A stretch of DNA of 54,222 bases from assembly GCA_963827165.1 (NCBI GenBank), contig CAWGZR010000001.1:1-54222 (forward strand), given 5' to 3'. Positions 10-46,244 of this stretch are shown in pieces. The DNA is from Candidatus Bathyarchaeota archaeon (lineage in GTDB: Archaea > Thermoproteota > Bathyarchaeia > Bathyarchaeales > Bathycorpusculaceae). Position numbers and translations under genes: made by a program. Below the pieces are notes generated by a model. That model saw only the letters and a program-made list of their open reading frames with translations, did not search any database and was not told the origin of the DNA. Positions within the stretch are counted from its first letter, which is position 1; each line of letters begins with the position of its first letter.

Positions 10-207
10 TCACCTCTCTTTGGGCCCTAGGGCTTCCAAAACCGTGTCTTCTACGTATTCAGCGTGGTCCAGTTTGCCTATTGTTCCTTCGATGAGCGCG
101 TTGTCTTGGGCGTCGTTGTTTAAGGCTATGTTCTTGAGGTTGACTTTTGATTTTAATTCAACGGAGAAAGGCCGCCCTTTTTCCATCGGTTTGTTTTCTT
201 TCACCAT
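10..207 (-). CDS. Hypothetical protein; 3' end at the window edge may be unreliable
   Basis: ORF 10..228 with probable ATG at 207 (MVKENK...FSVELKSK...IEGTIG); no recognised motif. Confidence 0.5.
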   Translation of the reverse strand: MVKENKPMEKGRPFSVELKSKVNLKNIALNNDAQDNALIEGTIGKLDHAEYVEDTVLEALGPKER

Positions 208-287
208 TTTTATTTCCTTCAAATGCAAATAAGTCGCTAATCCCCATTAGTTTTATTTGATGAGTATGTGTACTAAGATACAACGGT

Positions 288-1067
288 GTGTACGCGTTAA
301 CATCGGTAGGCAGCTTGGAAAAAAACAAAGGAATAGAAAAACTGTTTTTTGATCTTGCAAGTGAAAGCAGAATCGGTATAATACGCGAGCTAAAAGAACA
401 AAATCTCAAAAACAACGAGTTAGCTGGAAAGCTGGATTTGACAGCCACTGAAGCTTTCAGACAGCTACAACACCTAACTGAGGCACTTATAGTTCAGAGA
501 CTCCCTGATGGAACGTACACAATTACAAACTATGGCAAATTGACTCTACAGCTTCTTCAATCACAGGAATTCACCTTTGAGCATAAAGAGTACTTCTTGA
601 ATCATGACGTTTGGCGACTTCCATATCAGTTCGTTAACAGGATAGGCGAGCTTTCGAGGAGCACATTGAACATGGACACAATTGAGAACATGAACAGAGC
701 ATGTCAAATGCTTAGCGAAGCCGAGAATTATGCGTGGGCGATGGGCGAAACACTCCTAGAACCGTTAGGTCCAGCGATGGCGAGACCCATCTCCAAAGGA
801 GTCAAATTCAGGTTCATCGGTTGCGAAAGCAGGCTTCCCAACTTCAATCATGTTCCTGGAGAAGCGCCTCATATTGAACTTAGAACTTTCACCGATATCC
901 CAATAACAATAATTACCACCGAAAAAGAAGCTTGTATATGCTTGCCTTCAACCGAAGGAAGAATGGACTACGCTGCTTTCTTCGGCACAGACCCAAAGTT
1001 CATAAACTGGGCGAGAGAACTTTTCCTTTACTACTGGGACAAAGGAAGACCGAGCAACCCAACATAG
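288..1067 (+). CDS. ArsR-like winged-helix transcriptional regulator with DUF1724-type C-terminal domain
   Basis: LFFDLASESRIGII...ELAGKLDLTATEAFRQLQHL...YTITNYG; C-terminal DPKFINWARELFLYYW; start may be TTG 315. Confidence 0.8.
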   Translation: MYALTSVGSLEKNKGIEKLFFDLASESRIGIIRELKEQNLKNNELAGKLDLTATEAFRQLQHLTEALIVQRLPDGTYTITNYGKLTLQLLQSQEFTFEHKEYFLNHDVWRLPYQFVNRIGELSRSTLNMDTIENMNRACQMLSEAENYAWAMGETLLEPLGPAMARPISKGVKFRFIGCESRLPNFNHVPGEAPHIELRTFTDIPITIITTEKEACICLPSTEGRMDYAAFFGTDPKFINWARELFLYYWDKGRPSNPT

Positions 1068-1284
1068 GCCTAATTTTCCGACGCAGCACGCGCTTGACAT
1101 GCATAGTTGAACAAATCTATCTGTAAAAGAAACTTCCTTTGAAGTGTCCCATGTGCGGGGAGGGTTTTGTATTCAGTTTAGAATGCTACCATAAAATCAT
1201 GAATAATTAAATGTCTTTTGTCAAGCTACAATTTTTATTCTAATCTGTGGTGTTCTCCTATGTCACTAGTTGGTTGGTAATCGT

Positions 1285-2007
1285 ATGGCTAATCCAGTCG
1301 ATGTTGAACTTGTTGCTCATGACGCAGACAAGGCCTCAAAAAGAGGAGACCTTGTCATCGTGATTGATGTGGTGAGAGCAACAACCAGCATCATAACCGC
1401 ACTATCTAATGAAGCTAAAAGTGTTATTCCTGTCCAAACAGTCAAAGAAGCAATGCAACTTCGCACAACGCACCCTGATTATTTACTTGCTGGGGAGCGA
1501 GAAGGAGTTAAACCAAAAGGTTTTGACCTTGACAATTCCCCTTTATCACTTACCAAAGAGAAGGTGGAAGGAAAAAACCTCATCATGAGCACTACAAATG
1601 GAACAAAAGCTTTGGTGAGGTCAAAGGGGTCCAAATGGGTTTTAGTGGGTGCTTTTGTGAATGCTGATGCTGTTGCAAAGAAGAGCATTGAGATTGCAAG
1701 TGAGAATAATGTGGGGATTTCTTTTGTGTTGGCTGGTCAAAAAAACCATTTTGCTTTAGAGGATTTCATCTGTGCTGGTGGAATCATTGATAGACTTCCA
1801 AAGGGAGTTATTGAGCTTTCAGATAAAGCGTTGGGTGCTTTACTTGCCTATAATAGTGCTAAACACAGTTTGCAAGAGAACATTCGCAAAAGCAAACATG
1901 CACAAGAACTGTTGAAAATTGGGTTTGGTAAGGACATAGAATTTGCGTGTCAAATAGACCTTTACAGCATAGTTCCACGTTATAAAAACGGAGTCACACA
2001 GTTTTAG
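1285..2007 (+). CDS. comB: 2-phosphosulfolactate phosphatase (ComB family)
   Basis: VIDVVRATTSI, LAGEREG, DNSPL, STTNGT, LEDFICAG motifs. Confidence 0.9.
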   Translation: MANPVDVELVAHDADKASKRGDLVIVIDVVRATTSIITALSNEAKSVIPVQTVKEAMQLRTTHPDYLLAGEREGVKPKGFDLDNSPLSLTKEKVEGKNLIMSTTNGTKALVRSKGSKWVLVGAFVNADAVAKKSIEIASENNVGISFVLAGQKNHFALEDFICAGGIIDRLPKGVIELSDKALGALLAYNSAKHSLQENIRKSKHAQELLKIGFGKDIEFACQIDLYSIVPRYKNGVTQF

Positions 2008-2078
2008 AATGAAGAGATGGTTTTCGTCAAGCGCGTTGGGACATGTTAAATAGGACATATTTTTTGGCAGTGTCGTGT

Positions 2079-2588
2079 CTAGTCGATTGCGTATTTTCTT
2101 GATAAACGTTCTGTAGCAGAATGATTGATGAGTGGACCAGCGGCTAGCAAAGAATTGCTGATGACGGCAATTTTGCCCGATTCCATCTTGATCCACGTGT
2201 TTCTAAGGGCGAGACGCACCACTTTACCTTTAACGCTGCCATACTCCACTGTGTCGCCTAGGTGAATTACGCCGTCATGGAACATGAGTAAACCTGAGAG
2301 GATGTTGGATAGAGTGTTCTGTAACGCAAGCGAAACGGCAATTGCGGCGATTCCAGAAATGGTAATTGTCGTGAACTGTGATGCGAGACCACTTAGCGAA
2401 AGAATAACGGTAACGATCACAAGAACCACGATTACACGCAATGCTACCCCGATATCGCGAATTACGGTAGGGTTTGATCCCGCCTTCTTTGCTCCACTCC
2501 TGATAATGCGATTAATGCCTTCTTCGATCAGAATTGTCACGATTGTACCGATGGTGATACCTATAATTAGTTCGAGGTTTGTGATCAT
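2079..2588 (-). CDS. Short MscS-family mechanosensitive channel protein
   Basis: Three hydrophobic segments then SLALQNTLSNILSGL...IHLGDTVEY...GKVVRLALRNT...ISNS. Confidence 0.8.
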   Translation of the reverse strand: MITNLELIIGITIGTIVTILIEEGINRIIRSGAKKAGSNPTVIRDIGVALRVIVVLVIVTVILSLSGLASQFTTITISGIAAIAVSLALQNTLSNILSGLLMFHDGVIHLGDTVEYGSVKGKVVRLALRNTWIKMESGKIAVISNSLLAAGPLINHSATERLSRKYAID

Positions 2589-2855
2589 TCCGGGTGACTC
2601 CAGTCCAATTCTAGTAAAATGCATGAGAACTTAGCTTTTTTGTTTATGCAACTCATGGAGCAATAGACATAGTTTGCCGGCGCTCCAAAGAATAAGGTTT
2701 TGAACCGCAATCAGACTGTGTAAAAACTATTTTCGATTTCAGAAAATTGCAATTTTTATGTCTATTTTTTAAGGTTCAATGATTTGTTTTTTAATAAAAG
2801 GTACAATTTTTAAAACTGAATTCGAGTTTTCACACACTCTCGTTTGGGTATGGGA

Positions 2856-2870
2856 CGGGCAGCCCCACCA
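2856..2870 (+). repeat. tRNA-Pro 3'-end remnant (att-like site)
   Basis: CGGGCAGCCCCACCA: T-stem 3' strand, acceptor strand and CCA; related to copies at 3631, 7746, 8539, 9516. Confidence 0.7.
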
Positions 2871-2938
2871 TTTGGCGTCAGGTTTAATTTTCGAGGTTAT
2901 GAAAACTTTTTTAGGAAGGTGGCTATCTTATTTTTCTG

Positions 2939-3193
2939 GTGAAACTTTTGGAATCTGGTGTAGAACTTAAAAAAGTGGATGAACAGGGGCGTTTTATCCT
3001 GCCTGCTGATTGGCGTGAGTCTGAGCTTAGCGAAAGTCGGGAGATTTACGTTATCAAGCGGAAAGGCTATTTGAAGTTGATTCCTAAACGTCGCGTTGAT
3101 TTGACTGAATGTTTTGATAAGGCTGACTTAGGTGTCAAATCAATTGGCGCTTGGAGCGAGTTTGAAAAGGAATTCTACGGGGAACATCCATGA
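2939..3193 (+). CDS. AbrB/MazE/SpoVT-family antitoxin
   Basis: KKVDEQGRFILPADWRE; stop overlaps the PIN start (ATGA). Confidence 0.8.
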   Translation: MKLLESGVELKKVDEQGRFILPADWRESELSESREIYVIKRKGYLKLIPKRRVDLTECFDKADLGVKSIGAWSEFEKEFYGEHP

Positions 3194-3616
3194 GGTTTTT
3201 GGACGCAAACATCTTCATTTATGCCTACTACAGACCAAAGAGAACGCTGACAGAAAAAGAAGAAGCCATAAAAGAAGAAGCAAAAAACATAATAAGCAAC
3301 ATTTCGGCGGGCAAGGAGCAAGTCCTCACAACCGTGGTGCATATCTCTGAAATAGTAAATATTCTAAAAAATGGCTTGCCGAAAGATTTGCTCACAAAAA
3401 CAATTCTCGGCCTGTTCATGCTTGACAATGTAATCATAAAGGAAGTTACGAAGGAAGGTTATTTTGCGGCAGTCGCCATAGCTGAAGATCTGAAGCTTAG
3501 AACCTAACGACGCGTTAGCCGCAGATATAATGCGGCAAAACGGCGTTAAAGAAATATACTCATTTGACGAGCACTTCAACAAAATAAATGACGTAACCCG
3601 ATTACCAATTTTATAA
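3190..3616 (+). pseudogene. vapC: PIN-domain (VapC) toxin with a +1 frameshift near 3498, possibly a sequencing error
   Basis: MRFLDANIFIY...; after CTTAG the shifted frame continues EPNDALAADIMRQNGVKEIYSFDEHFNKI...PIL* to 3616. Confidence 0.85.
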
Positions 3617-3630
3617 TCAAGAACTTGTCT

Positions 3631-3688
3631 GCTGGTCTAGGCTTGTAGACTTGGGTTCTATAGACTCCGGTTCAAATCCGGGCAGCCT
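3631..3688 (+). repeat. Degenerate tRNA-Pro(TGG) fragment, D-loop to acceptor strand, lacking the 5' acceptor strand
   Basis: GCTGGTCTAGGCTT GTAGA CT TGG GT TCTAT AGAC TCCGG TTCAAAT CCGGG CAGCCT: anticodon arm and T arm both pair. Confidence 0.8.
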
Positions 3689-3930
3689 AGTAAAGTCTCT
3701 AAACCGTTTCGGGTTCAAGTACCGTAGGCGCCTGACCTATTTGAGGTTCAAATTCTGGGCGACAAGCAACTTCAGGGATACCTGTCTTTTTCAGCATCTC
3801 AACTTGCTGAAAACACGCGCACCTTCAACTAAGAGTCTTTTGAGATGCACCTTTAGCTTGTTGTAAGAAAAACCTGCCAAAGCCTTTCCGCTCAGCTTTG
3901 TGCGAAAATGTTTCAACAGACGCATATTTT

Positions 3931-6900
3931 TTACTGTCTGCGTGGTGGGTTCCGCTTGGAATTATTGTCAGCGCGTTTCTTTTTTGTTTTCTTTGATGTA
4001 GCTGGTGGTTTTCGTTGTTTTTTAGCTCTTGCAGGTTTCGGTTCCTCTTCTTTTACAGTTGCTGGTCGCGGTTTCGGTTGGGTTTCAATTTCAGGAAGCT
4101 TTGATTTTTCTGCTTTTGAAGCTGCGAGTTGCGGTTTCGTTTGAGCGTTAGCTTTGGAGACTTTAGCCGTTTTCTTTGCGGTTCGTCGTCTTCGTTTCTT
4201 CTTAGTTTTGGTGGTGAGTGCCATAGGTGCCGGTTTCTTTTCGGAGAGCAAATCGTCGTTTTGTTTAGGCGCTTGTTTTTCGACGTCGCTTGATTCTTGT
4301 TTGATGTCTTCTTGGACAGTTGAAACTGCAGCTATTGCAGGAGGAGGCGTGAGAACAGTTGTTTGCTGTTTTTCTTCTGGATTGATTATTGCATCTTTCG
4401 TTTCTAATTGCGAGGCTGATTTTGGTTGCCCCTCTTTGTACAAGTCGATCGTTGTTGCCGTTGAAGCTGGGGAAGCGTTGTCGTCTGTTTTCTTCCGGTT
4501 TTGTTTGAGCCAAGACAGCATCAAAGTTGATGTGAAAATCACAGCGAACAATACGATCGTTACGAGACCCACAAGGTATAAGCTGATGGACGAGGCTGTT
4601 TTCCATGTTGCCGTTTCTGTAATGGGATTATTCATTGTTACTGTTTGAGGATTAGTTGAGTTTGTGCATGAGCCTACGCCCGTTCCTATCCACTTGTCAA
4701 ATATGTAATTTTTGCCTGAATTAAGATACGGGGAAGTAACTGAGAAGGTTGCTGTTGTGCGGGCATCATACCAGCCTGTGCCAGTCGTGTTGCCGTAGGT
4801 TGACGTTACCGTCAGATAATATTGGGGTATGTACGTAATTGATTTGGCTGTTGTGATTGGAACTTCGATCTCTCCTGAAACCTCAAGGGGCATTAGCCGG
4901 TTGTCTTCCGCGAAACTTACTGCTGGGGTTGTCCAAGGATAGGTTCCTGCCTGAATCCCGTTGAAGGTCATGGTATTTTGGTTGGATGATTCTGTTACGC
5001 CTCTAAACGTTACGTTCCAAGTTTGTTCTCTTGGCAAACCGATTTCCGTGAAGGTTACGCTGAACACGATTGGTTTGGGTGTTGTTGCGCCGCTCGGATT
5101 AGTAGATTGAGAAGAAGGGGCGTTAAGGGTTAAGGTGGCCGCGGCGCTTTTGCCATTGTAGGTTGCAGTTACGGTAAATACTCCGCTTGTTGTTGAGGTT
5201 ATCGTGTTCCCCGAAACAGAGGCGCCTGGGGCAGTGAATGTTGTAGTTGAGGTTACGTCGCCTAAGCTGTTTCCGTAGGTATCATAGGCAACCACAGCGT
5301 AAGCTTGGAATTCGCCTGCAGAAATAGTTGAAGATGATGGATTAATCGCGATGTGGTCTAAATCTGAAGGGGTAACTTGGAAGATTGCGGGTTTGATCTT
5401 AACTCCACTAGTGGTGACGGAAACAGTGTACGTCCCCGCTAAAGTCTCAGTGACGGAAGCACCGCTTACCGAAGACCCGTTGACTGTGAAGGTCACACTT
5501 TGAGGACCAAGACCGTTACCAGAACTGTCATAGCCAACTGCAGTTAAAGTTACGACGTTTCCTGCAAAGACGTTAGAGGAAGAAACGCTAACAGTAATGG
5601 TGCTCAACCCTGTGGGCAAGACTTCAAACGAGGCTTGAGCGCTTAAGGTTCCGACAGTAGCTGTTACGGTATAGGCGCCAGCCGAGTTTTCATTTACTGA
5701 TGTGCCGGAGATTGCTCCAACCGGACTGACGCTCCATGACGGAGCGATCGTTATTGGATTGCGGTATAAGTCAGTCCCCAAAGCCGAGAAAGTTACGGTT
5801 GTACCTGCCGTCACCGAGGTCGAGGAGAGACTGACAGTTATTTGACTTAGGGAAGCGGCATTCACGGTTAAGGGTGCTGTAATTTTGGCTGTTATAGCGT
5901 TGTAGTTTGAGTCTCCACTGTAGGTGGCTCCAAACTCGTAAGAACTGGCTGCGGATGTAGGGCCGTAACCTTGAGAAGCCGTGGCGTTGGCTGTTTCGCC
6001 ACTTCCGGATATCGCTATTTCTGCTCCAAGCTGTGTCCACGTTGCGCCCCCATCGGTGGAGTAATAGAAGGTAACTGTTCCCGTGGGCGGAGTGGTGGCT
6101 TCGATTCCGGTGATGGTGACTGATGGAGCAACTGCGTTTCCAGCAGTGATTGTGTAGCTCGAAGAATTGAAAGATGCCGTCGCCGTAGCTTGATTTACGG
6201 TAACATATGTGGGCGAAGACGAATCGGAATTTAAGCCTAGACTGTCGGTGACAGTGACCGTTATTGAGTAGGAACCGGCGTAAGATGATGAAAAAGTGAA
6301 TGAGTTGCTTATGCCGCTTTGAACTTCATCATAACCAACATACCATTGATAACTCGTGTAGGTGCCTGAGCCTCCAGAAGCAGAAGCTGTAAACGTTCCA
6401 GATTGGCCAAGATTTGTCGAATAAGAGTCAGGAGATAAACTGACGATAGGAGCGCCATTTACCGTGATGGCGATAGCACCAGAAATAACTGCGGAGCTTG
6501 TGCTGTCTGTTACTTGAAGTTCAAAGCTGTAGGTTCCTATATCTGTAGACGTTGATGTTGCGAACGAGTATGAACTTGAAGTGGCATCGTTTACGGCTAC
6601 GTAACTTTCTTCTCCAGGAACCTGCTCAAGCCATTGATATGAGTAAGGGGAAGTGCCAGTGGATATTAACGTGAGGGTCAAACTGCTTGTTTGACTTTGA
6701 TCAACGGTAATAGCGGAAGCAGAAATTGTCGGGGCAACTATTTCTGAGTTCACTATAACGAGCACTGAGTTAGACTGGACCGTTTCATGATTTGATGCTT
6801 GGTCGGTGACTCTGCAGTAGATTGTCGGAGACCCGAGGGTGGCAGTTGCATAGGTGTAGGTTGGTGCTGTCGCGCCAAAGATGGATGCCCCGAGCAAATA

Positions 6901-7617
6901 CCATTGATAAGTTAGGGCGCCCGATCCGCCGGAAGCCGTGGCGGTGAAAGTTTCAGATTGGTCGACGTCCATTGACCAAGCGCTGGGCGAGACATTGACA
7001 GAAAGACCCTCATTCACGGTAACATTTGGTGTGTTTGATTTAACTGTAAAAGGTGAAGAGGCTCCGTAAGTTACATTGCAATAAATCGAAGGTGACCCAG
7101 AGACAGAAGGCTCAAACAAATAAGACGCGCCAGTCGCGCCGGGAACAGCTGAATCATTAAGATACCACTGATAGCTTACTGGATAAGTGCCTTCTGAAGC
7201 GGATACCCTAAATGTTTCCGATTGACCCACATCCATGGTCCAAGAAGACGGCGACACAGTGGCAGTCAAAGCGGGATTAACGGTCACAACCGCGCGAGAA
7301 GATGGATCGGAAACCGCATTTTTACTGTCAGTAACATTTACCGTAATTGAGTAAAAACCTGACGAGGAGGGAGTGAAAACGTATGTGCTGACAGATCCGT
7401 TTTGAACAAGGCTTGATCCAACATACCACTGGAAAACTGTGTAACTTCCTGAACCAAAACTGGGATGAGCAGTAAATGTCTGAGACTGACCAACATCCAT
7501 CATGTACGAAACCGGCGTAACCGTGACCAATGGGTTTGCCCGCACATAAGTCGCTGAAAACAAGAATAGTAGTAGAGCAAAGAACACTATCGTACCTACT
7601 TTCAGTTTATGGGTCAA
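3931..7617 (-). CDS. Large membrane-anchored surface glycoprotein with PKD/Ig-like repeats and a basic cytoplasmic tail
   Basis: Signal peptide; repeated VSPSSWTMDVGQSETF...YQWY units; FSVTFTEIGLP and PQYYLTVTS...GWYD modules; TM helix; K/R-rich C-terminus. Confidence 0.8.
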   Translation of the reverse strand: MTHKLKVGTIVFFALLLFLFSATYVRANPLVTVTPVSYMMDVGQSQTFTAHPSFGSGSYTVFQWYVGSSLVQNGSVSTYVFTPSSSGFYSITVNVTDSKNAVSDPSSRAVVTVNPALTATVSPSSWTMDVGQSETFRVSASEGTYPVSYQWYLNDSAVPGATGASYLFEPSVSGSPSIYCNVTYGASSPFTVKSNTPNVTVNEGLSVNVSPSAWSMDVDQSETFTATASGGSGALTYQWYLLGASIFGATAPTYTYATATLGSPTIYCRVTDQASNHETVQSNSVLVIVNSEIVAPTISASAITVDQSQTSSLTLTLISTGTSPYSYQWLEQVPGEESYVAVNDATSSSYSFATSTSTDIGTYSFELQVTDSTSSAVISGAIAITVNGAPIVSLSPDSYSTNLGQSGTFTASASGGSGTYTSYQWYVGYDEVQSGISNSFTFSSSYAGSYSITVTVTDSLGLNSDSSSPTYVTVNQATATASFNSSSYTITAGNAVAPSVTITGIEATTPPTGTVTFYYSTDGGATWTQLGAEIAISGSGETANATASQGYGPTSAASSYEFGATYSGDSNYNAITAKITAPLTVNAASLSQITVSLSSTSVTAGTTVTFSALGTDLYRNPITIAPSWSVSPVGAISGTSVNENSAGAYTVTATVGTLSAQASFEVLPTGLSTITVSVSSSNVFAGNVVTLTAVGYDSSGNGLGPQSVTFTVNGSSVSGASVTETLAGTYTVSVTTSGVKIKPAIFQVTPSDLDHIAINPSSSTISAGEFQAYAVVAYDTYGNSLGDVTSTTTFTAPGASVSGNTITSTTSGVFTVTATYNGKSAAATLTLNAPSSQSTNPSGATTPKPIVFSVTFTEIGLPREQTWNVTFRGVTESSNQNTMTFNGIQAGTYPWTTPAVSFAEDNRLMPLEVSGEIEVPITTAKSITYIPQYYLTVTSTYGNTTGTGWYDARTTATFSVTSPYLNSGKNYIFDKWIGTGVGSCTNSTNPQTVTMNNPITETATWKTASSISLYLVGLVTIVLFAVIFTSTLMLSWLKQNRKKTDDNASPASTATTIDLYKEGQPKSASQLETKDAIINPEEKQQTTVLTPPPAIAAVSTVQEDIKQESSDVEKQAPKQNDDLLSEKKPAPMALTTKTKKKRRRRTAKKTAKVSKANAQTKPQLAASKAEKSKLPEIETQPKPRPATVKEEEPKPARAKKQRKPPATSKKTKKKRADNNSKRNPPRRQ

Positions 7618-7745
7618 GAACCCCCTCTCCTAACATTTCTCCTATAACGTTACGGTGCACTTAAAAAGCTTGCCAAATTGTAGGGACGCGTTTCTTATCG
7701 CTCGCTGGACAGGGCATTAATCTCTGCCGCTGTCACCCAGATTTA

Positions 7746-7770
7746 GGTTCAAATCCCCTCAGCCCTACCA
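7746..7770 (+). repeat. tRNA 3'-end remnant (Pro-type)
   Basis: GGTTCAAATCCCCTCAGCCCTACCA followed by CTGATCT (compare CAGATCT after the 9516 copy). Confidence 0.7.
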
Positions 7771-7792
7771 CTGATCTCCAAAGTTTGACTGA

Positions 7793-8206
7793 TCACATTC
7801 TTCTTCTTATTTCTGATTTGTCGAAATCCCTGTCGTTTGAAACTATTTCTTCTGCTCCAACTCTCTCCGCCACAGCCAAATGCAATGAATCCTCATAATC
7901 GAGTTCCCAGTTCCCCATAATTTCTGCCGCCTTCTTGAAGTCTTCAGATTTGAGAGGTTCAATTGTTAATGGCTTAATGGCCGTAATCGGAGTTATAACT
8001 TGAGTTATGAACGTTTTGTCCTTGAGGTTTCTTCCTGCTAGAATAACGGTTGTTTCCGTATAATGTCACGCTATGAGTGAAGTATTTTACCTCGTGGAGC
8101 CTCTTCCATGTTTTGGACCAGCTTTTGGCTGTTTTCGCGCGATTCGGGTGATTCCCAACCAGCAAACAAATATGTTCACATCTATGTAGCGTGTTGGTTC
8201 CACCAT
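7793..8206 (-). pseudogene. vapC: PIN (VapC) toxin with several frameshifts
   Basis: MVEPTRYIDVNIFVCWLG... and C-terminal LDYEDSLHLAVAERVGAEEIVSNDRDFD; about four single-base indels between 8050 and 8155. Confidence 0.85.
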
Positions 8207-8460
8207 TTTCTGGTTGCCTCCGTTACAAATTCGTCTAAATCTTCTGGCCATTTGGAAATTGTGAAGATTCCAAAATATTTCTCAGCTATGGACTCTGATG
8301 GTTCGATAATTATTATATGGTCTTTAGATTTTATGTTGACATATGCTCCGGGTTTTAGTTTGGCTTTTCTTCTGATATTCTTCGGGATTATTATTCTGCC
8401 TTTGTCGTCTACTTTGGCGATTGCTTCTTCCATCTCATCCCACTTTTGTTTTTTTCCCAT
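8182..8460 (-). CDS. AbrB/MazE-family antitoxin
   Basis: AKVDDKGRIIIPKNIRRKAKLKPG; overlaps the PIN start. Confidence 0.85.
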   Translation of the reverse strand: MGKKQKWDEMEEAIAKVDDKGRIIIPKNIRRKAKLKPGAYVNIKSKDHIIIIEPSESIAEKYFGIFTISKWPEDLDEFVTEATRKWWNQHAT

Positions 8461-8538
8461 TGTTAAATATAAGACCACCAATTTTAAAATGTTCCACAAA
8501 TCGTCTTACAATTCCACAGCTCGAGGCTTCGGCTATTT

Positions 8539-8595
8539 TGGTATAGGCTTGTAGACTTGAGCTCTGAGGACTCTGGTTCAAATTCGGGCATCCCA
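8539..8595 (+). repeat. Degenerate tRNA-Pro fragment (second long copy)
   Basis: TGGTATAGGCTTGTAGACTTGAGCTCTGAGGACTCTGGTTCAAATTCGGGCATCCCA aligns with 3633-3688. Confidence 0.8.
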
Positions 8596-8751
8596 ATGCA
8601 AAAAATCCCGAAAATCTCTACATCATTTTTTCGAGTCTTCTTACGTTTAGGGTAAGATCATATTGCGTTTGGTTTTGTCGTTCTTGTTGAGCGAATAAGA
8701 TTGCAATGAAAAGGTGTCTCATTGTAATGAATCCATGGCTTAAACCAGTCA

Positions 8752-8783
8752 TAAGTAAGACTTAAGTAAGATTAGATTCTTAC
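8752..8783 (+). promoter_or_regulatory. Probable antitoxin operator/promoter
   Basis: TAAGTAAGA direct repeat and GTAAGA-N6-TCTTAC palindrome just upstream of abrB at 8802. Confidence 0.45.
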
Positions 8784-8801
8784 AATCAATGAGCCTTAGT
8801 C

Positions 8802-9059
8802 ATGTTAAAAACTGTTGTCTCGAAAAAAGGCCAAGTTGTTATACCTAAAGGCGCGAGGGATCAGCTTAACTTAGCTCCTGGCACCGTTCTCGAAGTTCAA
8901 GTTGAAAAAGGTCGAGTTATCCTCAAACCGTTTAAAGCGCTGCCAGAGAAAGCTTTCTTTCGGGCAGGCAAGAATATCACCAAGCCAATCCTGCAAGAAG
9001 CAAAAGCCACAAGCGATAAGACACAAAGACTTCTCAAAGAGCTAGGTATCGATGCCTAA
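8802..9059 (+). CDS. AbrB/MazE-family antitoxin
   Basis: VSKKGQVVIPKGARDQLNLAPG. Confidence 0.9.
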   Translation: MLKTVVSKKGQVVIPKGARDQLNLAPGTVLEVQVEKGRVILKPFKALPEKAFFRAGKNITKPILQEAKATSDKTQRLLKELGIDA

Positions 9060-9507
9060 AATCGTTTTAGACACGAGCGTCATAATAGAGTATATAGACA
9101 AAGACTCTGAGTTTAATGATCAAGCAACAGGAGTTTTCGCATCGCTAAAAAAGGGCGAACTTGAAGCGATAATCCCTCATCCGATCTTATCCGAAACTTA
9201 CTATGTCAGCGCAAAGATATACCAAAAACTTGGAATAGAAACGCCTCAAAGTCTTTCAGCAGAGCTAGTAGAATGGCTCTTTAGACTTCCATCAGTGACA
9301 ATTCCGGTGGAAAACAAAGATTTGGCAATCGAAGCGGGCAAAACAAAACTGAAATATTGCATAGCCTTAACTGACTGCTACGTCTTGGCAGCGTCTCAAA
9401 TTTGCAACTGTAAAGCCTTATTCAAAAAACCTGAACGTGAAATGTCTCAAAAATTGAACGCCTTAAAGAAAACCTATCAACTTGTATTTCTATCAGATTA
9501 CAGGTGA
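9052..9507 (+). CDS. vapC: PIN-domain (VapC) toxin
   Basis: IVLDTSVIIEY...LSETYY...LTDCYVLA; overlaps abrB. Confidence 0.9.
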   Translation: MPKIVLDTSVIIEYIDKDSEFNDQATGVFASLKKGELEAIIPHPILSETYYVSAKIYQKLGIETPQSLSAELVEWLFRLPSVTIPVENKDLAIEAGKTKLKYCIALTDCYVLAASQICNCKALFKKPEREMSQKLNALKKTYQLVFLSDYR

Positions 9508-9515
9508 TTCCCTTC

Positions 9516-9548
9516 GGTTTAAAAACAGGCAGCCCCGCCACAGATCTT
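9516..9548 (+). repeat. tRNA-Pro 3'-end remnant
   Basis: GGTTTAAAAACAGGCAGCCCCGCCA followed by CAGATCTT. Confidence 0.65.
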
Positions 9549-9566
9549 TATTTAACTCAATTCTGC

Positions 9567-9695
9567 TTAAGTGCTGACCACTGGAGCTTTTGGGAACTCG
9601 ATTATATTAAATATTGTTGTTAGGCCTTTGAAGCTGGCTTTATCAGTTTTGAGGTGGTTTATGAGCTGATTTGTGTAGTAGGCAATCTCTTCCAT
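9567..9695 (-). pseudogene. Truncated PIN toxin (N-terminal 42 aa only)
   Basis: MEEIAYYTNQLINHLK...GLTTIFNIIEFPKA* overlapping the antitoxin 3' end; resembles short archaeal PIN N-termini. Confidence 0.55.
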
Positions 9696-9940
9696 TCCAG
9701 CTTCCTGCCTTTTTCGTATTGTTCAGTTGCATCATCGAGGGTTATGTCGGCAAGATCCAGGTTGGAGTCTTTGAGCATAGTTGCCAGTTTGCTTGAAGGC
9801 ACTACTCCTCCTTCAATTATTTCCATTTTGTTGATGTAATCTGCTATTGACTTTCTTACTACTTCGCTCCACTTTACTTCTGCATGTTTCTTCATCTTCT
9901 CGCAGAGCTCGGAAGGGATCGAGATAGTAATGTTTGTCAT
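9659..9940 (-). CDS. Ribbon-helix-helix (CopG-like) antitoxin
   Basis: MTNITISIPSELCEKMKKHAEVKWSEVVRKSI. Confidence 0.8.
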   Translation of the reverse strand: MTNITISIPSELCEKMKKHAEVKWSEVVRKSIADYINKMEIIEGGVVPSSKLATMLKDSNLDLADITLDDATEQYEKGRKLEWKRLPTTQISS

Positions 9941-10093
9941 AAATAATATTTAAGTGAAAATACAGATTTAAGTAATATTACTAAAACGGTTTCTAAAATT
10001 GTGCTTGCAGTTTACGACAACCGTGTTTGGAAAATGCAAATAACAACCAAGTTCCCGACAGATCTTGAACACAATTGAAAAACGGTTGCAAGT

Positions 10094-10474
10094 TTAGTTT
10101 TTGTTTTCTTGTAATTTGCCGAATTCTAAGGCGCTCTTGATTAGTCGCTCGAATGTTTCGAAATCTGAATGTTGTATCGTTGTTTCCTCGGAACCGATAT
10201 ATTTGTTGTTTTTTGCTTGTCTAACCAATCTTTCGAATTCGTTTTCTAAAATATCCCTGGTCATTATAGGTTTGCCGTCCAGCAATCTTAGACCGCAGCC
10301 AAGGCAATATTCAAAATCGAACTGCAAAACCCGCTCTTTTGAGTTGCCTTCCCCAAAGTATTTGGTGTCCTTGACTAACTTGGTGAAGTTGACATCGTCA
10401 TATTCAATGAATGAGACATGGGTTTTTTTCATGTCGTGTTTATGGTTGGGGTCAGCGGACTTCTTTGTTTGCAT
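10094..10474 (-). CDS. Hypothetical protein (HxH and CxxC, possibly Zn-binding)
   Basis: 126-aa ORF with HKHD and CLGC. Confidence 0.55.
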   Translation of the reverse strand: MQTKKSADPNHKHDMKKTHVSFIEYDDVNFTKLVKDTKYFGEGNSKERVLQFDFEYCLGCGLRLLDGKPIMTRDILENEFERLVRQAKNNKYIGSEETTIQHSDFETFERLIKSALEFGKLQENKN

Positions 10475-39084: not shown

Positions 39085-40121
39085 TATCTTTTCCTGAAAT
39101 TATTTCCGCTTTCGTTTTAACGTGTTTCATGGTTTTTCACCATTTGAATAATTCTTTTGCTTGCCACATCCAACATTCCGGCGGTAACTTTCTGATAAAT
39201 GCTTGATTAGGAGTCTCTGCATAATGCATGTTAAGGCTTCCATGCATCCGATTATTATACCATCCAAGCAGCTCAGATAAAGAGCCATATCTGCCACGAT
39301 GATGCTCATAGAAATCAAACCATTTCTCAACTTTACCATTAGTCTGAGGATGATTCACCCCACAAAGTATCTGCTTGACTCCCTCTGACTTGAGAAAGTT
39401 CTCAAACACATGATCAGCTAAACCATGCTTATCTCTTCTCTCACCATAAAACTGGCTACCGTGATCGCTTATACATTCTCTAATACTGATATTGTAATTT
39501 GATCTACATCGCAGCAACGCCTCTCTTAGCAATAAAACAGAGTTTTCAGCGGTTGCATTGCTAAATTCTCCACCTGATAGAATCTTTCTTGAAGCATCAT
39601 CTAGAACAACGCATACTTGCTTTCCATGAACTGCCTTGCTGATATGCCAGTCCATATGGACAGCTGAGAGTGAATGTTCTCGTTCATAGCGAATCCATGG
39701 TTTCCGTCGTTTCTGTTTATTCTCCTGTTCACTCGCATAACCCTTCGCAAGCATAATCTTATGTATAGTGTTATGGGGTATTCTCTGTTTCTGTTCAATA
39801 TCGATTATCGTTTCCAAATAGAGAGCGTTCAAGTGGTGGCTTTGCCATTCATCGATTATGGTTTGTTCTTGTTGATCTGAGATTTTGGCTGTTGGCCTTC
39901 CAACGTTTGATCCTACAGTGGGAATGGTTTTTGTTTTCTTGTAGATTCGGTAGATTTGTCTAAACCGTCTTGACGTAACTCCCAGATACTCTGAAAGCCA
40001 TGATTGTGTTGCCTTTCCTTCTTCAAATTGCTTAATGCACCATCGGAGTTTCTTGTGATCTCTAAGTTTAGCCATGCAAGCCTTTGGTTTTAAATAGAGG
40101 AAATAATTTTGGGAAAAGATA
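39085..40121 (-). mobile_element. IS481-family insertion sequence (1037 bp) with 23-bp TIRs and 15-bp TSD
   Basis: TIRs TATCTTTTCCTGAAATTATTTCC and revcomp TATCTTTTCCCAAAATTATTTCC (21/23); CTTGCTCGCTTGGGG at 39070-39084 and 40122-40136. Confidence 0.9.
39137..40075 (-). CDS. DDE (rve) transposase, IS481 family
   Basis: N-terminal HTH; RYEREHSLSAVHMDWH, VLDDASR, SDHGSQF, HPQTNGKVEKWF. Confidence 0.92.
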   Translation of the reverse strand: MAKLRDHKKLRWCIKQFEEGKATQSWLSEYLGVTSRRFRQIYRIYKKTKTIPTVGSNVGRPTAKISDQQEQTIIDEWQSHHLNALYLETIIDIEQKQRIPHNTIHKIMLAKGYASEQENKQKRRKPWIRYEREHSLSAVHMDWHISKAVHGKQVCVVLDDASRKILSGGEFSNATAENSVLLLREALLRCRSNYNISIRECISDHGSQFYGERRDKHGLADHVFENFLKSEGVKQILCGVNHPQTNGKVEKWFDFYEHHRGRYGSLSELLGWYNNRMHGSLNMHYAETPNQAFIRKLPPECWMWQAKELFKW

Positions 40122-42744: not shown

Positions 42745-43108
42745 CTATACCAAACACACGTCTTTTAATGCCTTAAGATCGTTATCGCTCGTGTAGAATT
42801 TGGCCTTCCAATGGCGAGCAGTGGCATAAACAAGAGCGTCTGCAAAGTGTAGGTTATGTTCAAGGCTGTAGTCTGCTGCCTCAAGGGAGATTGATTGGTC
42901 GACTGGCGCAATCGTCGTCTGGCTGAGAGCGGCAACTGCCAGTAAAGCTTCTTCTTCACCCTTTACTTTCTTAATTTTTTTGTAGATTTCGTAGAGTACG
43001 ACAACTGAAGTGACTATCTCTTTAGGCTGCGTTGATTCAATTATCTGTTTGTATTGTCGCGCCTTTGGTAAGCTGTTCAATCCATCCAAAACTGTCTATG
43101 CTAATCAA
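42745..43108 (-). pseudogene. vapC: PIN (VapC) toxin frameshifted near its N-terminus
   Basis: TTG 43108 gives MISIDSFGWIEQLT (catalytic Asp), but the remainder (PKARQYK...HFADALVYA...YTSD) is in another frame. Confidence 0.8.
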
Positions 43109-43313
43109 TTCTGTCAGACTCGTCTCGCAAGCCTTTTGTATCAAGTCCGGGGATAAATCCTTCTGTTTCTTTTATGGGACGAACAGGTATGTACTGGATA
43201 ATTCCATGTTTAGTGATGGCAACCATCTTGTCTCCTGGTTTGATTCCCGATTGCTTGCGTAGTTTCTCGGGGATAACCACCTGATATTTCTTCGATACAA
43301 TAACTGTTTCCAT
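43101..43313 (-). CDS. AbrB/MazE-family antitoxin
   Basis: VSKKYQVVIPEKLRKQSGIKPGD. Confidence 0.9.
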   Translation of the reverse strand: METVIVSKKYQVVIPEKLRKQSGIKPGDKMVAITKHGIIQYIPVRPIKETEGFIPGLDTKGLRDESDRID

Positions 43314-43442
43314 CGATCATCAACTGGTAATACGAATACTAAATCGATGATAAAAAAACATTGTTGCACTCGCGTATGCGAACCTCGGCGCAAATTATGT
43401 TTAATTGCGCTAATTTGTTCAGAAAAACTGAAAGTACTTTGA

Positions 43443-43481
43443 TTGGTAAATTGGCGTCGGGAAGGACACTAGCACCAATTT
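43443..43481 (-). repeat. tRNA-Ser att-like junction J5
   Basis: TTGGTAAATTGGCGTCGGGAAGGACACTAGCACCAATTT. Confidence 0.8.
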
Positions 43482-43614
43482 GTTGTGAAAATCGTTGGAG
43501 TAGTCCAATAAATTTTCATGCCACTTCTATTGACGCTAGCGTCGTAAACTTTACCAGTAAAAAACTCAGCTGGTTTAACTCGCTTTTCAAGGTTAAAGAT
43601 TGCTTTGAAATAAG

Positions 43615-43875
43615 TTACTTGTACACATTGTCATGGTGCTCGTACCTCCTAATCGTGACTACTTTTCTTTCCTCATCTATGTCGTAGACAAGAACGAAGG
43701 ACCCAACATGTACACGGCGCATGTGCTGCATGGGACTCTTCAACGGCTTGAATTGTTGAGGATTTTCCAAAATCTTATCCACCTTCTTTGAGACTGCTTC
43801 AAACTGCATTGAATCTTTCTTTCGCAGCTTCTTGAATGTTCTATCTACTTTTTCAACCACTTCTAAAGAATACAA
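43615..43875 (-). CDS. relE: RelE/ParE/YafQ-family mRNA interferase toxin
   Basis: ILENPQQFKPL...RRVHVGSFVLVY...YEHHDNVY. Confidence 0.85.
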   Translation of the reverse strand: MYSLEVVEKVDRTFKKLRKKDSMQFEAVSKKVDKILENPQQFKPLKSPMQHMRRVHVGSFVLVYDIDEERKVVTIRRYEHHDNVYK

Positions 43876-43879
43876 ATAA

Positions 43880-44110
43880 TCACTTGGAGTATCTCTGGGT
43901 GAAGTTGTTGACTTTTACAGTTTTTTCACTTTGAGAATGTTTTAGGCTTTCTATGAACTCTGGTCTTAACTCGGGCTCCATAACGCACTCTTCAAACTGT
44001 TTTGCCATCAAGTTTATGGCTTGGCTCTTGTCTCTGAGCCCGTATTTGGCTTTGAGTATGTTTAGTATCCGGTTGGTCCTGTCGTCTATGGTCACTATGG
44101 CTTTTACCGT
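43880..44110 (-). CDS. Antitoxin (DUF2683-like); probable start position carries ACG
   Basis: (T)VKAIVTIDDRTNRILNILKAKYGLRDKSQAI...EPELRPEF; GGTGAT RBS precedes ACG at 44110; GTG at 44095 is the alternative. Confidence 0.75.
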   Translation of the reverse strand, partial: TVKAIVTIDDRTNRILNILKAKYGLRDKSQAINLMAKQFEECVMEPELRPEFIESLKHSQSEKTVKVNNFTQRYSK

Positions 44111-44219
44111 ATTATCACCACATTAATGCAATGTTAATCTGAAATATATAAAGTACTCCATAATATTTTCGAATTTTATTCGGGTTACCCAATCTGAAAT
44201 GATATGCGAATAGTCTGCT

Positions 44220-44312
44220 GTTGAGCTTATTTAGTAAATATAAGCCTAAAATAGATTCTAAATCGGCAAACGGCGTCGGGGGTTGATCCCAGCATCAATT
44301 TACCAGAAAAAA
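44220..44312 (-). repeat. tRNA-Ser att-like junction J4 with arm
   Basis: GTTGAGCTTATTTAGTAAATATAAGCC...GGCAAACGGCGTCGGGGGTTGATCCCAGCATCAATTTACCAGAAAAAA. Confidence 0.8.
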
Positions 44313-44343
44313 CTTGCGGACTATAGTAACAGGACAACTCAAG

Positions 44344-44787
44344 TTAGGGCTCAATGAAGGGATTTTGCGCCTTAATGAATCCATATTTATTGAAGTCTCT
44401 CACATTTTCGGTGTAAATGACGTCTATCTTGTTTGCTTTGGCAGAAACGGCTAAGATGCAATCAAAGACCTTGGAACCTGATAACCTCTTGCTCTTAACG
44501 AGGCTGAAAACTTCCCTAGGTACCGACTCGGAGGCAGCGATTTTCCCGAGTTCATCACATTCCCATAGATCGATGCATAACTCAGCGGCTATGTCAGGAG
44601 ACAAGGGCGATTCGACTCTCTTAGCGTTGGTGATGACAGCAAAAAACTCAAAAAGCACTTGCTGAGAAATACATGCTTCTATCTCCCCTGCCATCGCTCT
44701 TTCTATTATGCTGCTGGCAACCTTCTGGTTAGGAGATGCCTTGTTGTAAGCATGTACAAGGATGTTCGTATCAAGTAGTATCCTCAT
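44344..44787 (-). CDS. vapC: PIN-domain (VapC) toxin
   Basis: ILLDTNILVHA, QVLFEF, VFDCILA, IYTENVRDF. Confidence 0.92.
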   Translation of the reverse strand: MRILLDTNILVHAYNKASPNQKVASSIIERAMAGEIEACISQQVLFEFFAVITNAKRVESPLSPDIAAELCIDLWECDELGKIAASESVPREVFSLVKSKRLSGSKVFDCILAVSAKANKIDVIYTENVRDFNKYGFIKAQNPFIEP

Positions 44788-45013
44788 AAATCTCTTCCCT
44801 AGAAAGGCGCCCTTTTATCCGGCCAAGGTTAGGCGGGTTTTCGAGCATTTCACGAGCTAGCTTTGCCTTACGGCATCCTCGGACTACACTGAGTTTGGCA
44901 ACCCCCTTTTTTACAACTTCAATGCGTAATACGTCGCCATCTACTAGACCAAGTTTTTCCCTGACGCCTTTGGGCAAGTAGACTTTGTCCTCGTAGAAAG
45001 TAGTTTCAGCCAT
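44771..45013 (-). CDS. AbrB/MazE-family antitoxin
   Basis: KVYLPKGVREKLGLVDGD...LSREEIYED; overlaps the PIN start. Confidence 0.85.
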   Translation of the reverse strand: MAETTFYEDKVYLPKGVREKLGLVDGDVLRIEVVKKGVAKLSVVRGCRKAKLAREMLENPPNLGRIKGRLSREEIYEDTT

Positions 45014-45136
45014 ATCAACACTGGTTACCCAGTGAATTGGGCAAAATATAAACTTTGCCAGCACCATGCTTTCCATGCTGATTTGCCTTCTGAGGCTTAA
45101 AAGCTACCTGAAAATTTGAATGAACTTTGAATATGT

Positions 45137-45216
45137 CTATTTAGTCAAAATAAGCTCATGACTATCCGATTTTGTAAAATGGCGCCGGGAGGGGGATCCA
45201 GCACCAATTTACTCGT
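45137..45216 (-). repeat. tRNA-Ser att-like junction J3 with arm
   Basis: CTATTTAGTCAAAATAAGC...GTAAAATGGCGCCGGGAGGGGGATCCAGCACCAATTTAC; 18 nt identical to the tRNA-Ser 3' end including CCA. Confidence 0.9.
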
Positions 45217-45345
45217 AAATACTGGCAACGGTTGCCCGTCTCCAAATCAAGTGAGCAAAACCTCTTTTCTTCCTATCTCGGCATGAAGAGACATTCATAT
45301 TTCTTAGGCCGTGGGCGAGCCAAACTCAAAATGCCCTAGAAATTC

Positions 45346-45744
45346 CTAAATCCAGTTTCTTTTCGTTTCTTTTATTGAATCAAAATGGGGGTCGTCTGAT
45401 AAGATGATTGCCTGGTTGGCTATGGCTGTTGCGGCAATTATGCAGTCGCCCATTGGTACATTTCGATATTTGCTTCTTAGAAGACCAGCTTGTTTGGCTA
45501 TTGGTGCGCTTAAGCTTTGGATTTTCAATCCGCTTTGGGTTAAGTTTGCATAGCAGATTTCTGCCTCTTCTTTTCCGATTTGTCCGCAGACTGTTTGAAT
45601 CGTTTCGCTGATAACGATTGTGGGCAGTATGCCTTCTTTACGCTGGATTATTTCTTTTAGCCTTTTTGTGGCGTTTTGCTTGGTTTCAGGGATATCCGAA
45701 TAGAAATACTCCATGACGAATCTGCTGTCAAGGACCGTTCGCAA
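45346..45744 (-). CDS. vapC: PIN-domain (VapC) toxin
   Basis: TVLDSRF, ISE, PMGDCIIAATA, ILSDDPHF. Confidence 0.92.
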   Translation of the reverse strand: MRTVLDSRFVMEYFYSDIPETKQNATKRLKEIIQRKEGILPTIVISETIQTVCGQIGKEEAEICYANLTQSGLKIQSLSAPIAKQAGLLRSKYRNVPMGDCIIAATAIANQAIILSDDPHFDSIKETKRNWI

Positions 45745-45747
45745 GCT

Positions 45748-45978
45748 TTAATATTCCTCTCTGAGCTTATCTATCTGCCTTTTCATTTCTTCTGGTTTTG
45801 CGTATTTCGAGTAAATACCTGCGCAGTCTTCCAGTTTTCTGATTGGCGTAAAAATTACTTGACCATGCTCGGTTGTTTCGACCAAAAGTTTGTCGCCTTC
45901 CTTTATTACGAGTTTTTGCCTGACTTCTATTGGTATGGTTGTTTGTCCTTTTCGGGTAACCTTTACAACGGTTGTCAT
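45748..45978 (-). CDS. AbrB/MazE-family antitoxin
   Basis: VKVTRKGQTTIPIEVRQKLVIKEGD. Confidence 0.9.
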   Translation of the reverse strand: MTTVVKVTRKGQTTIPIEVRQKLVIKEGDKLLVETTEHGQVIFTPIRKLEDCAGIYSKYAKPEEMKRQIDKLREEY

Positions 45979-46145
45979 TTGTAATCTCAACGAAAGAAGG
46001 CAATAGTACTTTAAAACTATTGTCCTACTTCAAATGCAAAGTACTGCTAAATTTTGTGAAGTGAGAAATTATTATTAAGCGCGCTGAAGAAAAACGCCAA
46101 TAAGCCAACAATTCACCTTATTTGGAATGAAAATGCCAAATTCAG

Positions 46146-46200: not shown

Positions 46201-46244
46201 ACATTTTTGACGTCACCACTAATATGCAATCAACTATCAACACA

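Follow-up and report, generated by a model that had tools for sequence, protein, structure and literature searches.

How did five partial copies of one tRNA gene, tRNA-Pro(TGG), all on the + strand and within 6.7 kb, come to lie between toxin–antitoxin (TA) pairs of VapBC-type genes in the genome of a Candidatus Bathyarchaeota archaeon? The window, i.e. the whole stretch of DNA that was analysed (54 222 nt), is the entire contig C1 of an assembly of 14 contigs and 3.13 Mb (94.5% complete, 3.9% contamination). A sequence-only reading of this DNA had suggested that the pieces record an accretion of inserted DNA at a tRNA gene, the second tRNA at which such a mechanism would act. We think it probable that the region is an insertion hot spot, a row of scars from repeated site-specific insertion at tRNA-Pro-type attachment sites. 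Below, G000 denotes the genome under study, other G-numbers denote its relatives and X-numbers denote public sequencing runs. The runs were compared as assembled contigs, and parts of the window with no contig cover in any run carry no evidence; run contigs, which come from independent public runs, cover 2852–3686 and 4739–9857 and, therefore, the layout described here is not an artefact of this assembly.

The sole intact tRNA-Pro(TGG) gene of the genome was found at C5:45519–45596 (minus strand, CCA encoded); a tRNA-Pro(CGG) gene is situated on C2, while a Pro(GGG) tRNA was not found in the G000 genome. The pieces, designated R1 to R5, were delimited by local alignment of the window to the intact tRNA-Pro(TGG) gene, and the positions given within them follow the tRNA numbering.

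2846–2870, + strand: R1, tRNA-Pro(TGG) 3′ end; exact match (15/15) at 2856–2870 to positions 64–78, CCA included, preceded by 10 nt of degenerate T-arm-like sequence.
3633–3687, + strand: R2, positions 18–72 of tRNA-Pro(TGG), 54 of 55 identical, starting 15 nt past the stop codon of PIN toxin 1.
3688–3723, + strand: imperfect palindrome (TCTAAACC GTTTC GGGTTCAAG...) adjoining R2.
7739–7777, + strand: R3, positions 47–78 at 7739–7770 (26/32 identical), T-stem unlike that of the host tRNA, followed by CTGATCT from 7771.
8525–8594, + strand: R4, decayed near full-length tRNA-Pro copy, positions 3–73 with one gap, anticodon mutated to TGA.
9512–9547, + strand: R5, positions 50–78 at 9512–9540 (23/29 identical), followed by CAGATCT from 9541.
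10057–10065, + strand: ACAGATCTT, repeating 9 nt of the post-R5 sequence; the CAGATCT copy is at 10059 and there is no tRNA-like part.

All five remnants reported by the sequence-only reading are real, with one amended in kind: the piece described as a 3′ part of ∼57 nt at 8539 is the near full-length decayed copy R4. Ungapped matches to the last 25 nt of the tRNA amount to 18, 20, 21, 19 and 20 of 25 at R1 to R5, respectively. In three block-shuffles of the whole genome, 6.26 Mb over both strands, a mean of 2.7 matches of at least 18 was observed, and none of at least 19; five same-strand pieces are thus far above chance. The end-to-end gaps between successive pieces are 817, 4083, ∼827 and ∼943 bp, in agreement with the earlier estimates of about 0.82, 4.1, 0.83 and 0.95 kb. 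The pieces vary in extent from 15 to 71 nt and mostly retain the 3′ end, as attachment-site repeats do; they align to tRNA-Pro and not among themselves as a separate hairpin family. The pieces are genuine derivatives of tRNA-Pro(TGG), with the behaviour of attachment-site scars.

The CWGATCT motif was seen after R3 and R5, as had been noted, along with a lone repeat near 10059. The string CCAC[AT]GATCT occurs five times genome-wide, with two of the occurrences in this region, after R3 and after R5; given this rarity, R3 and R5 share a type of site that reaches a few bases past the CCA. We considered CAGATCTT at 10059 as a sixth tRNA remnant and rejected it, as it has no tRNA-like part. ARAGORN reports 3624–3691 as a tRNA-Pro gene, with positions 1–17 and the true 3′ end missing. 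The Rfam tRNA model did not report this call at the gathering score, and with permissive E-values Rfam gave no tRNA match to any remnant in 1–14 000, the only match being one of 10 bits to the tmRNA clan (3648–3684); Rfam was of no use for scoring the Pro pieces.

The cargo between the pieces was assigned by a Pfam scan of 15 open reading frames (ORFs).

2939–3193, + strand: antitoxin 1, AbrB/MraZ-like, with weak Pfam and NCBIfam matches.
3190–3618, + strand: PIN toxin 1, with a weak PIN match over 3190–3507, shortened by a frameshift (one extra base near 3496).
3931–7617, − strand: PKD/Ig-repeat surface protein of 1228 aa with a signal and a C-terminal anchor, filling the 4.1-kb interval.
7796–8206 (approximate), − strand: PIN toxin 3, broken: it has two stops in frame, and the reading frame changes within its N-terminal third.
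8182–8499, − strand: antitoxin 3, AbrB/MazE type (Pfam).
8802–9059, + strand: antitoxin 4, AbrB/MazE type (Pfam).
9052–9507, + strand: PIN toxin 4, intact (Pfam PIN), with its stop 5 nt before R5.
9541–9670, − strand: N-terminal PIN stub of 43 codons that ends at R5; the catalytic D of YDTN is Y.
9659–9940, − strand: VapB/RHH-like antitoxin, weak (NF050799 with E-value 6e-6, below the cut-off; RHH_3 with E-value 0.16).

For three pairs (TA1, TA3 and TA4) an antitoxin gene of PF04014/PF02381 overlaps a PF01850 PIN gene, the arrangement of VapBC; in two of the three (PIN1 and PIN3) the toxin gene is interrupted. The Pfam results agree with the order proposed from the letters alone, i.e. abrB-PIN, surface protein, reversed abrB-PIN and abrB-PIN, and the RHH-PIN remnant said to follow is represented by the weakly VapB-like gene with the 43-codon PIN stub. 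The latter unit (9586–9983) has 83% DNA identity to a locus in G023, where the homologue of the stub is a longer PIN. Antitoxin 1 shows DNA identity of 76% to its counterpart in G010 and of 70% to that in G020; PIN1 is intact in both of these relatives, and the extra base near 3496 is absent from contigs of two runs. TA3 is reversed, so R3 and R4 are on the strand opposite to it. The boundaries are tight: the distance from the PIN stop to the tRNA piece is 15 nt in TA1, 5 nt in TA4, ∼22 nt in TA3, ∼18 nt in the G010 locus and ∼25 nt in the G016 locus, and that from the CCA to the antitoxin start is 69–205 nt. The units R1-TA1-R2 and R4-TA4-R5 carry a single TA pair each and have attachment-site-like flanks, with no integration or transfer genes.

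A site resembling an unoccupied target was found in a relative. In contig C5 of G016 a miniature inverted-repeat transposable element (MITE) followed by GGGTTTGGGGA-CGGGCAGCCCCA is joined straight to the palindromic flank that in the window follows R2; the same kind of MITE stands beside R1.

2713–2840, strand not assigned: MITE of an IS1182-like family, 128 bp, with inverted ends GAGACTGTGTAAAAACT / AGTTTTCACACACTCTC, separated by 5 nt from the degenerate T-arm stretch with which R1 starts.

The G016 site aligns to window positions 2717–2867 (111/152) and 3679–3723 (37/46), and its 12-nt core aligns both to R1 and to the end of R2. By this comparison the stretch 2868–3678 (0.81 kb) has the look of an insert that is bounded on either side by the 12-nt core; it comprises TA1 and a further 46 nt resembling tRNA, such as an element-borne attP would bring along. 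The combination of the MITE with a Pro piece recurs at C5:39934–40091 of G000, in G020 and at this G016 site.

The flank of R2 itself (3688–3723) is 89% identical to the region after the intact tRNA-Pro(TGG) gene in G016 and G004. In contig C6 of G016 the order is intact tRNA-Pro, palindrome, RHH-PIN, rearranged Pro piece and the palindrome again; since the palindrome is repeated there, the repeat unit reaches ∼40 nt past the tRNA and has an 11-nt inverted repeat. The palindrome at 3688–3723 accordingly belongs to the attachment site.

Blocks of the same composition were observed in two other species. In G020, where two complete tRNA-Pro(TGG) genes stand 1.7 kb from one another, a homologous MITE-R1-TA1 block (70% identity) shares the strand of tRNA-Pro(TGG) and is located ∼6 kb downstream of it. 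In G010 a block made of a short Pro end, an AbrB-PIN pair and a long Pro piece (76% identity) has unrelated DNA on both sides, and the long piece carries G010's own tRNA variant. A third species, G002, has tRNA-Pro, then RHH-PIN, then a 65-nt Pro piece, 0.81 kb in all, and its RHH-PIN is homologous to that of G016:C6; the site is thus used by TA families other than AbrB-PIN too. In G020, G002 and G016:C6 the array is headed by an intact tRNA-Pro of the same orientation; in G010 and G016:C5 it is not. Extra same-strand Pro pieces within ∼7 kb after tRNA-Pro(TGG) were found in 5 of the 18 genus relatives examined. The VapB-like gene has homologues behind a tRNA-Glu-like gene, at a distance of 84 nt in G019 and of 260 nt in G004; the same module thus sits at different tRNAs.

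Close strains differ in this region. One X1 contig contains a 90%-identical copy of 9861–9986, then 96 unknown letters, then 2852–3686 at 98.7% identity, and in other run contigs the agreement with the window is lost to the left of 9584 (X1) and of 10079 (X2).

The association of PIN genes with tRNA-derived sequence extends over the genome. A BLAST search with all tRNAs against the genome produced 45 fragments (E-value ≤0.05) outside the 41 tRNA genes. PF01850 PIN matches were within 500 bp of a tRNA gene or fragment in 12 of 34 cases, versus 3.7% of 5000 random places; as PIN matches cluster, the independent loci are fewer, ∼10 of 20 near a tRNA feature in our own grouping. In 7 of 32 PIN genes the 70 nt after the stop codon held a tRNA-like stretch that outscored 99% of 1500 random segments; when the present array is left aside, the count was 4 of 29. 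Some of the pieces centre on the anticodon arm (Thr-CGT positions 24–50, Ala-TGC 27–53, Pro 18–72). The proposal of a genome-wide system is thus borne out as far as the link between PIN genes and tRNAs within this genome goes; in other genomes most homologues of these TA pairs are without a tRNA piece (counts are given below).

Site-specific insertion at tRNA genes is otherwise well represented in G000. Exact 3′ repeats accompany tRNA-Thr-GGT (47 nt), Arg-TCT (43 nt), Met (38 nt), Leu-TAG (26 nt) and Ala-TGC (24 nt), and classical islands, consisting of tRNA, exact 3′ repeat and integrase, are present at Thr-GGT, Arg-TCT, Ala-TGC and Leu-TAG. The Thr and Arg islands have PF16795 ‘archaeal phage integrase’ genes whose 5′ ends are inside the repeat; the Ala and Leu islands have a PF00589 integrase beside the tRNA; and the Met island (1.7 kb) has one surface-protein gene, with the integrase absent. 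Of 20 PF16795 loci retrieved from genomes of the genus, 18 contain part of a tRNA, namely of Thr-GGT in five and of Arg, Ser, Gly, Val, Leu, Met or Ala in others. Behind the intact tRNA-Pro on C5 we observed a UPF0175/DUF3368 pair (79 nt on), a surface protein, a Fic protein, a MITE and a 15/25-nt Pro piece (C5:39934); a remnant after the UPF0175/DUF3368 pair was looked for there and none was found. A Pro piece of its own closes the C5 island, which makes C1 a second locus. When viral_contigs was scanned for exact copies of 28 nt from the 3′ part of tRNA-Pro, nothing matched.

How such a region could arise may be pictured as follows. Mobile DNA carrying a partial copy of tRNA-Pro(TGG) as its attachment site would recombine, with a tyrosine integrase presumably supplied from elsewhere, into a target that could be either a tRNA-Pro gene or the scar of an earlier insertion. 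Each event would bracket the inserted DNA with tRNA-derived repeats, and a new event would push the older ones along. Most cargo would be lost afterwards, while VapBC-type pairs, whose loss is harmful, and one surface-protein gene would persist. Later decay would account for the frameshift in PIN1 (in this assembly), the broken PIN3, the PIN stub of 43 codons and R4 as a dead tRNA copy, and the MITE would have been inserted beside R1 during the same period. Each unit of ∼0.8–0.95 kb may have arrived at this size or have been cut down from a larger element. We infer the action of a recombinase, the succession of events and the part that addiction played in survival. Scars of this kind are supported by the look-alike site that stands unoccupied in a relative, by the recurrence of the block in two further species, by the 0.81-kb unit of tRNA, TA pair and fragment in a third, and by the enrichment of PIN genes near tRNA features.

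Several observations weigh against this account. No intact tRNA heads the array in the available DNA: window position 1 is the first base of C1 and the sequence upstream of it is absent from the assembly. The intact tRNA-Pro(TGG) that the sequence-only reading expected upstream does exist in the assembly, on C5. An attempt to join C1 to another contig through the gene order of G016 failed, the island blocks of G016 mapping to mid-C3, mid-C13 and mid-C1 and never to contig ends. Neither PF00589 nor PF16795 has a match anywhere on C1, in line with the earlier statement that the window lacks an integrase, and none of the 20 PF16795 loci of the genus carries a Pro piece that would mark a tRNA-Pro-specific integrase. 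The ‘empty site’ of G016 belongs to another species, at 73–80% identity and a different map position, and its MITE-plus-piece lies 1.2 kb after tRNA-Val(TAC). The G010 block is situated 17.6 kb upstream of tRNA-Pro, with no ARAGORN tRNA in the 28 kb before the block. Of the loci in relatives homologous to TA1, TA3, TA4 or the VapB-like gene, 12 of 14 have no tRNA piece, the two others being the VapB-like homologues just after the tRNA-Glu-like gene; for the TA1 family, counted by species representatives, 12 of 13 loci have none and the exception is G020 itself. The junction of R5 with the PIN stub is a deletion rather than a clean insertion. Finally, the X1 joint, whose middle 96 letters are unknown, could be an assembly chimera through a repeat or the MITE.

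The island at tRNA-Val(TAC) of G016 also contains the ArsR-type and MscS genes of window positions 33–2649. This island and the upstream position of the G010 block indicate that the pieces travel or get rearranged, so that a location downstream of the own tRNA is not general. Judged by gene order, Pro scars and their neighbours appear to be moved about inside islands of other tRNAs, and the layout with an intact tRNA upstream, as first envisaged, would on the evidence of the relatives not be a rule. In its general form the earlier interpretation is sound. That the same accretion mechanism operates at a second tRNA was upheld in part: the pieces behave as attachment-site scars and an unoccupied look-alike site exists in G016, while R4 is full-length and the R5 junction is a deletion.

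The most serious competitor attributes mobility to the TA units as such. The VapBC pairs would be integrase-less mini-cassettes of ∼0.8–0.95 kb, each consisting of promoter, antitoxin, PIN and then a tRNA-derived recombination site a few bases after the stop, stacked and reshuffled at tRNA genes and old scars by an integrase acting in trans, in the manner of integron-like capture. The tight boundaries on both sides of the pairs (5–25 nt after the PIN stop, 69–205 nt from the CCA to the antitoxin) are what such cassettes would have, as are the tRNA-like stretches after 7 of 32 PIN stops, the 0.81-kb insert relative to the G016 site that brings its own longer tRNA-like arm, and the G002 unit of tRNA, RHH-PIN and fragment, likewise 0.81 kb; besides, TA1 has another left neighbour in the 98.7%-identical strain, on the one X1 contig. 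The tRNA piece, however, does not belong to the TA families as such: it was found at 2 of 14 homologous loci, and the TA1 family as its constant carrier was rejected, with 1 of 13 loci. We saw no circular form and, within the species, no true empty site; the 20 PF16795 loci of the genus included no cognate integrase, and one unit (R5 with the PIN stub) is plainly a deletion product. In three species, moreover, the R1-TA1-R2 unit has retained the same pair of piece types, a pattern that agrees with inheritance as a block as well as with re-insertion. A dedicated cassette system is thus unproven, as most TA homologues elsewhere are without a tRNA piece. Setting the tight boundaries and the related features against the evidence of trimmed remnants, we regard an array of scars as the probable origin of the region and a dedicated mini-cassette as a doubtful, if still serious, candidate.

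A second alternative dispenses with site-specific insertion altogether. The pieces would be decayed local duplicates of tRNA-Pro, and the TA pairs would have arrived independently, by the activity of insertion sequences (IS) and MITEs or by homologous recombination among tRNA-like repeats. R4 is indeed a full-length dead tRNA, G020 does have two full tRNA-Pro(TGG) genes in close vicinity, and in our own reading ∼17 of 30 ends of IS1182-like elements and MITEs are next to T-arm-like sequence, one of them at R1; in Sulfolobus islandicus vapBC loci flanked by degenerate IS copies are described in the genome paper (PMC3718332). On the other side, the pieces differ in length (15 to 71 nt) and mostly keep the 3′ end in the way of attachment-site repeats; the comparison with G016 shows duplication of a core around the insert; the G010 piece matches that host's own tRNA variant; and the region holds a single MITE, so that no composite transposon brackets any TA pair. 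We find this explanation improbable.

VapC toxins cleave tRNAs. The idea that the tRNA-like stretch, present 5–30 nt past the stop in 7 of 32 PIN genes and in several cases centred on the anticodon arm (Thr-CGT, Ala-TGC, Pro), is a working part of the operon RNA, e.g. a decoy or sensor for a tRNA-cleaving VapC, is hardly credible. We dropped it on the ground that the pieces change as neutral DNA does: in G002 the anticodon loop is altered or carries insertions, in G020 it is shortened and in G016 it is internally deleted. In addition, R3 and R4 lie opposite to TA3, and 25 of the 32 PIN genes have no such stretch.

The family to which the MITE belongs has full copies at C9:23692–25336, C3:138180–139821, C3:25125–26767, C9:14224–15853 and C13:24001–25645 of G000; the inverted ends of the MITE are common to full copies (C9:23692–25336 and others), in which the transposase has the domains DUF772 and DDE_Tnp_1_6. 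Target duplications of 4 bp (TTTT, AATT, AAAT, TTAC) were seen at several copies and are absent at the window copy (CAAT / GTTT). The ends counted above sit 4 nt from T-arm-like GGGTTCAAATCC, and often the element is flanked on one side by the remainder of a tRNA 3′ end (Ala, Arg, Gly, Val, Pro) and on the opposite side by a T-arm-like half in inverted orientation. At C3:158271 such a palindrome stands unfilled. It seems that this family targets the centre of tRNA-derived palindromes.

Further observations concern the surroundings of the array. Between the ArsR-type and MscS genes of the window, the gene for ComB (2-phosphosulfolactate phosphatase, 1090–2063) is missing in G016 and G009, and an X1 contig skips it as well, with 25 other letters instead. 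An X1 contig omits 1093 bp (6384–7478) within the repeat-rich surface-protein gene, which suggests strain variation in the number of repeats. In G000 the other kind of cargo that recurs in tRNA-linked islands consists of large repeat proteins, secreted or anchored, of PKD/Ig, PQQ-propeller and YNCE-like types (window 3931–7617; C5:41834–44497; C5:312232–313404; C11:118028–119338). Just outside the array a 126-aa protein without a family match is encoded at 10094–10474 (− strand), and DNA copies of it, 73–80% identical, occur in at least eight relatives, among which G023 has two copies. When 42 further ORFs of the window were scanned with Pfam, only a weak rve-type transposase-like ORF (39137–40075) was detected. 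The RNA run X9 has seven contigs only, over the surface-protein gene and 9136–9324, and they reveal neither transcripts nor transcript ends.

Other PIN-rich stretches were noticed. In the window, 42745–46976 forms a second run, with four PIN-containing pairs in 4.2 kb, downstream of an intron-containing tRNA (minus strand, 49342–49453); an 18-nt exact copy of the 3′ end of this tRNA is at 45180–45197, and T-arm-like bits follow two PIN stops. This run is presumably the ‘first array’ of the sequence-only reading. At C4:29403–47981 eight PIN genes occupy 18.6 kb with no detectable tRNA piece nearby, and the pair at C4:47328–47980 is 69% identical to the RHH-PIN unit after tRNA-Pro in G002. The PF16795 genes at C5:310351–311259 and C10:95096–96055 start in the tRNA-derived repeat, their first codons being the reverse complement of the T-arm (...GFEP...).

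C1 terminates inside a partial tRNA (window 54153–54214) with a near twin at C11:718–775, and both C9 and C11 open with PIN / AbrB genes (C9:57–655; C11:58–775). Arrays of tRNA scars probably break assembly contigs. For annotators, the locus holds two warnings: ARAGORN calls one scar a tRNA-Pro gene, and assembly contigs break inside such arrays.

Insertion scars at tRNA genes are well known; less usual are rows of near-minimal TA units between scars in several species of a genus, as well as PIN genes in excess, roughly 10-fold over the whole genome, next to tRNA genes or pieces. Survival of addiction modules at integration hot spots offers a route for the build-up of VapBC pairs in archaeal genomes. 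If the units were mobile as such, they would constitute a small cassette-capture system in an uncultured and abundant group of soil archaea. The literature searched, from which most subscription journals were missing, yielded no paper in which units consisting of TA pairs alone are described between tRNA fragments of Bathyarchaeia.

Of the systems to which the locus can be compared, archaeal VapBC pairs share with it the small AbrB/MazE-type or RHH-type antitoxin gene overlapping a PIN toxin gene; the proteins are ordinary, whereas their position against tRNA-derived scars is unusual. Large chromosomal integrons are rows of small single-gene cassettes with a recombination site near the stop codon, TA cassettes included. 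The likeness is in small gene units each ending in a recombination site by the stop, with TA pairs among the cargo; the difference is that here no IntI-type integrase or attI was found (there is no tyrosine recombinase in the window), the repeats derive from tRNA and not from attC hairpins, and orientation is mixed.

A review on cis-mobilizable elements (CIMEs) and their accretion (PMC5704250) cites Pavlovic 2004 and Bellanger 2011. The streptococcal CIMEs are described in that review as decayed elements flanked by attachment (att) sites and subject to site-specific accretion: integration and transfer genes are lost, attL and attR are kept, and the elements stand in tandem and can serve as the next target of insertion, all of which resembles the present array. 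CIMEs are described as bacterial, derived from integrative and conjugative or integrative mobilizable elements and several kilobases in size, whereas the content of each unit here is a single TA pair.

The closest parallel is with tandem tRNA islands. For the tycheposon islands of Prochlorococcus a preprint (10.1101/2020.12.28.424599) reports that elements have integrated one after another and are separated by partial tRNAs, of which the older remnants have more; arrays of tyrosine-recombinase elements are mentioned for archaea, and thaumarchaeal integrated elements are treated, in PMC6563490; and vapBC is listed within a tRNA-Met insertion of S. islandicus in Table 6 of PMC3718332. The tycheposon, Sulfolobus and thaumarchaeal islands resemble the present region in having DNA bracketed by partial target tRNAs, older elements pushed along, and degenerate remnants with extra partial tRNAs. 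The region differs in that there is no integrase in or beside the array, that its units are of 0.8–0.95 kb and almost all VapBC, that no intact head tRNA is present in the available DNA, and that Pro pieces occur also in a relative's island at another tRNA. In these terms the locus is a compact, TA-rich form of a known kind of hot spot.

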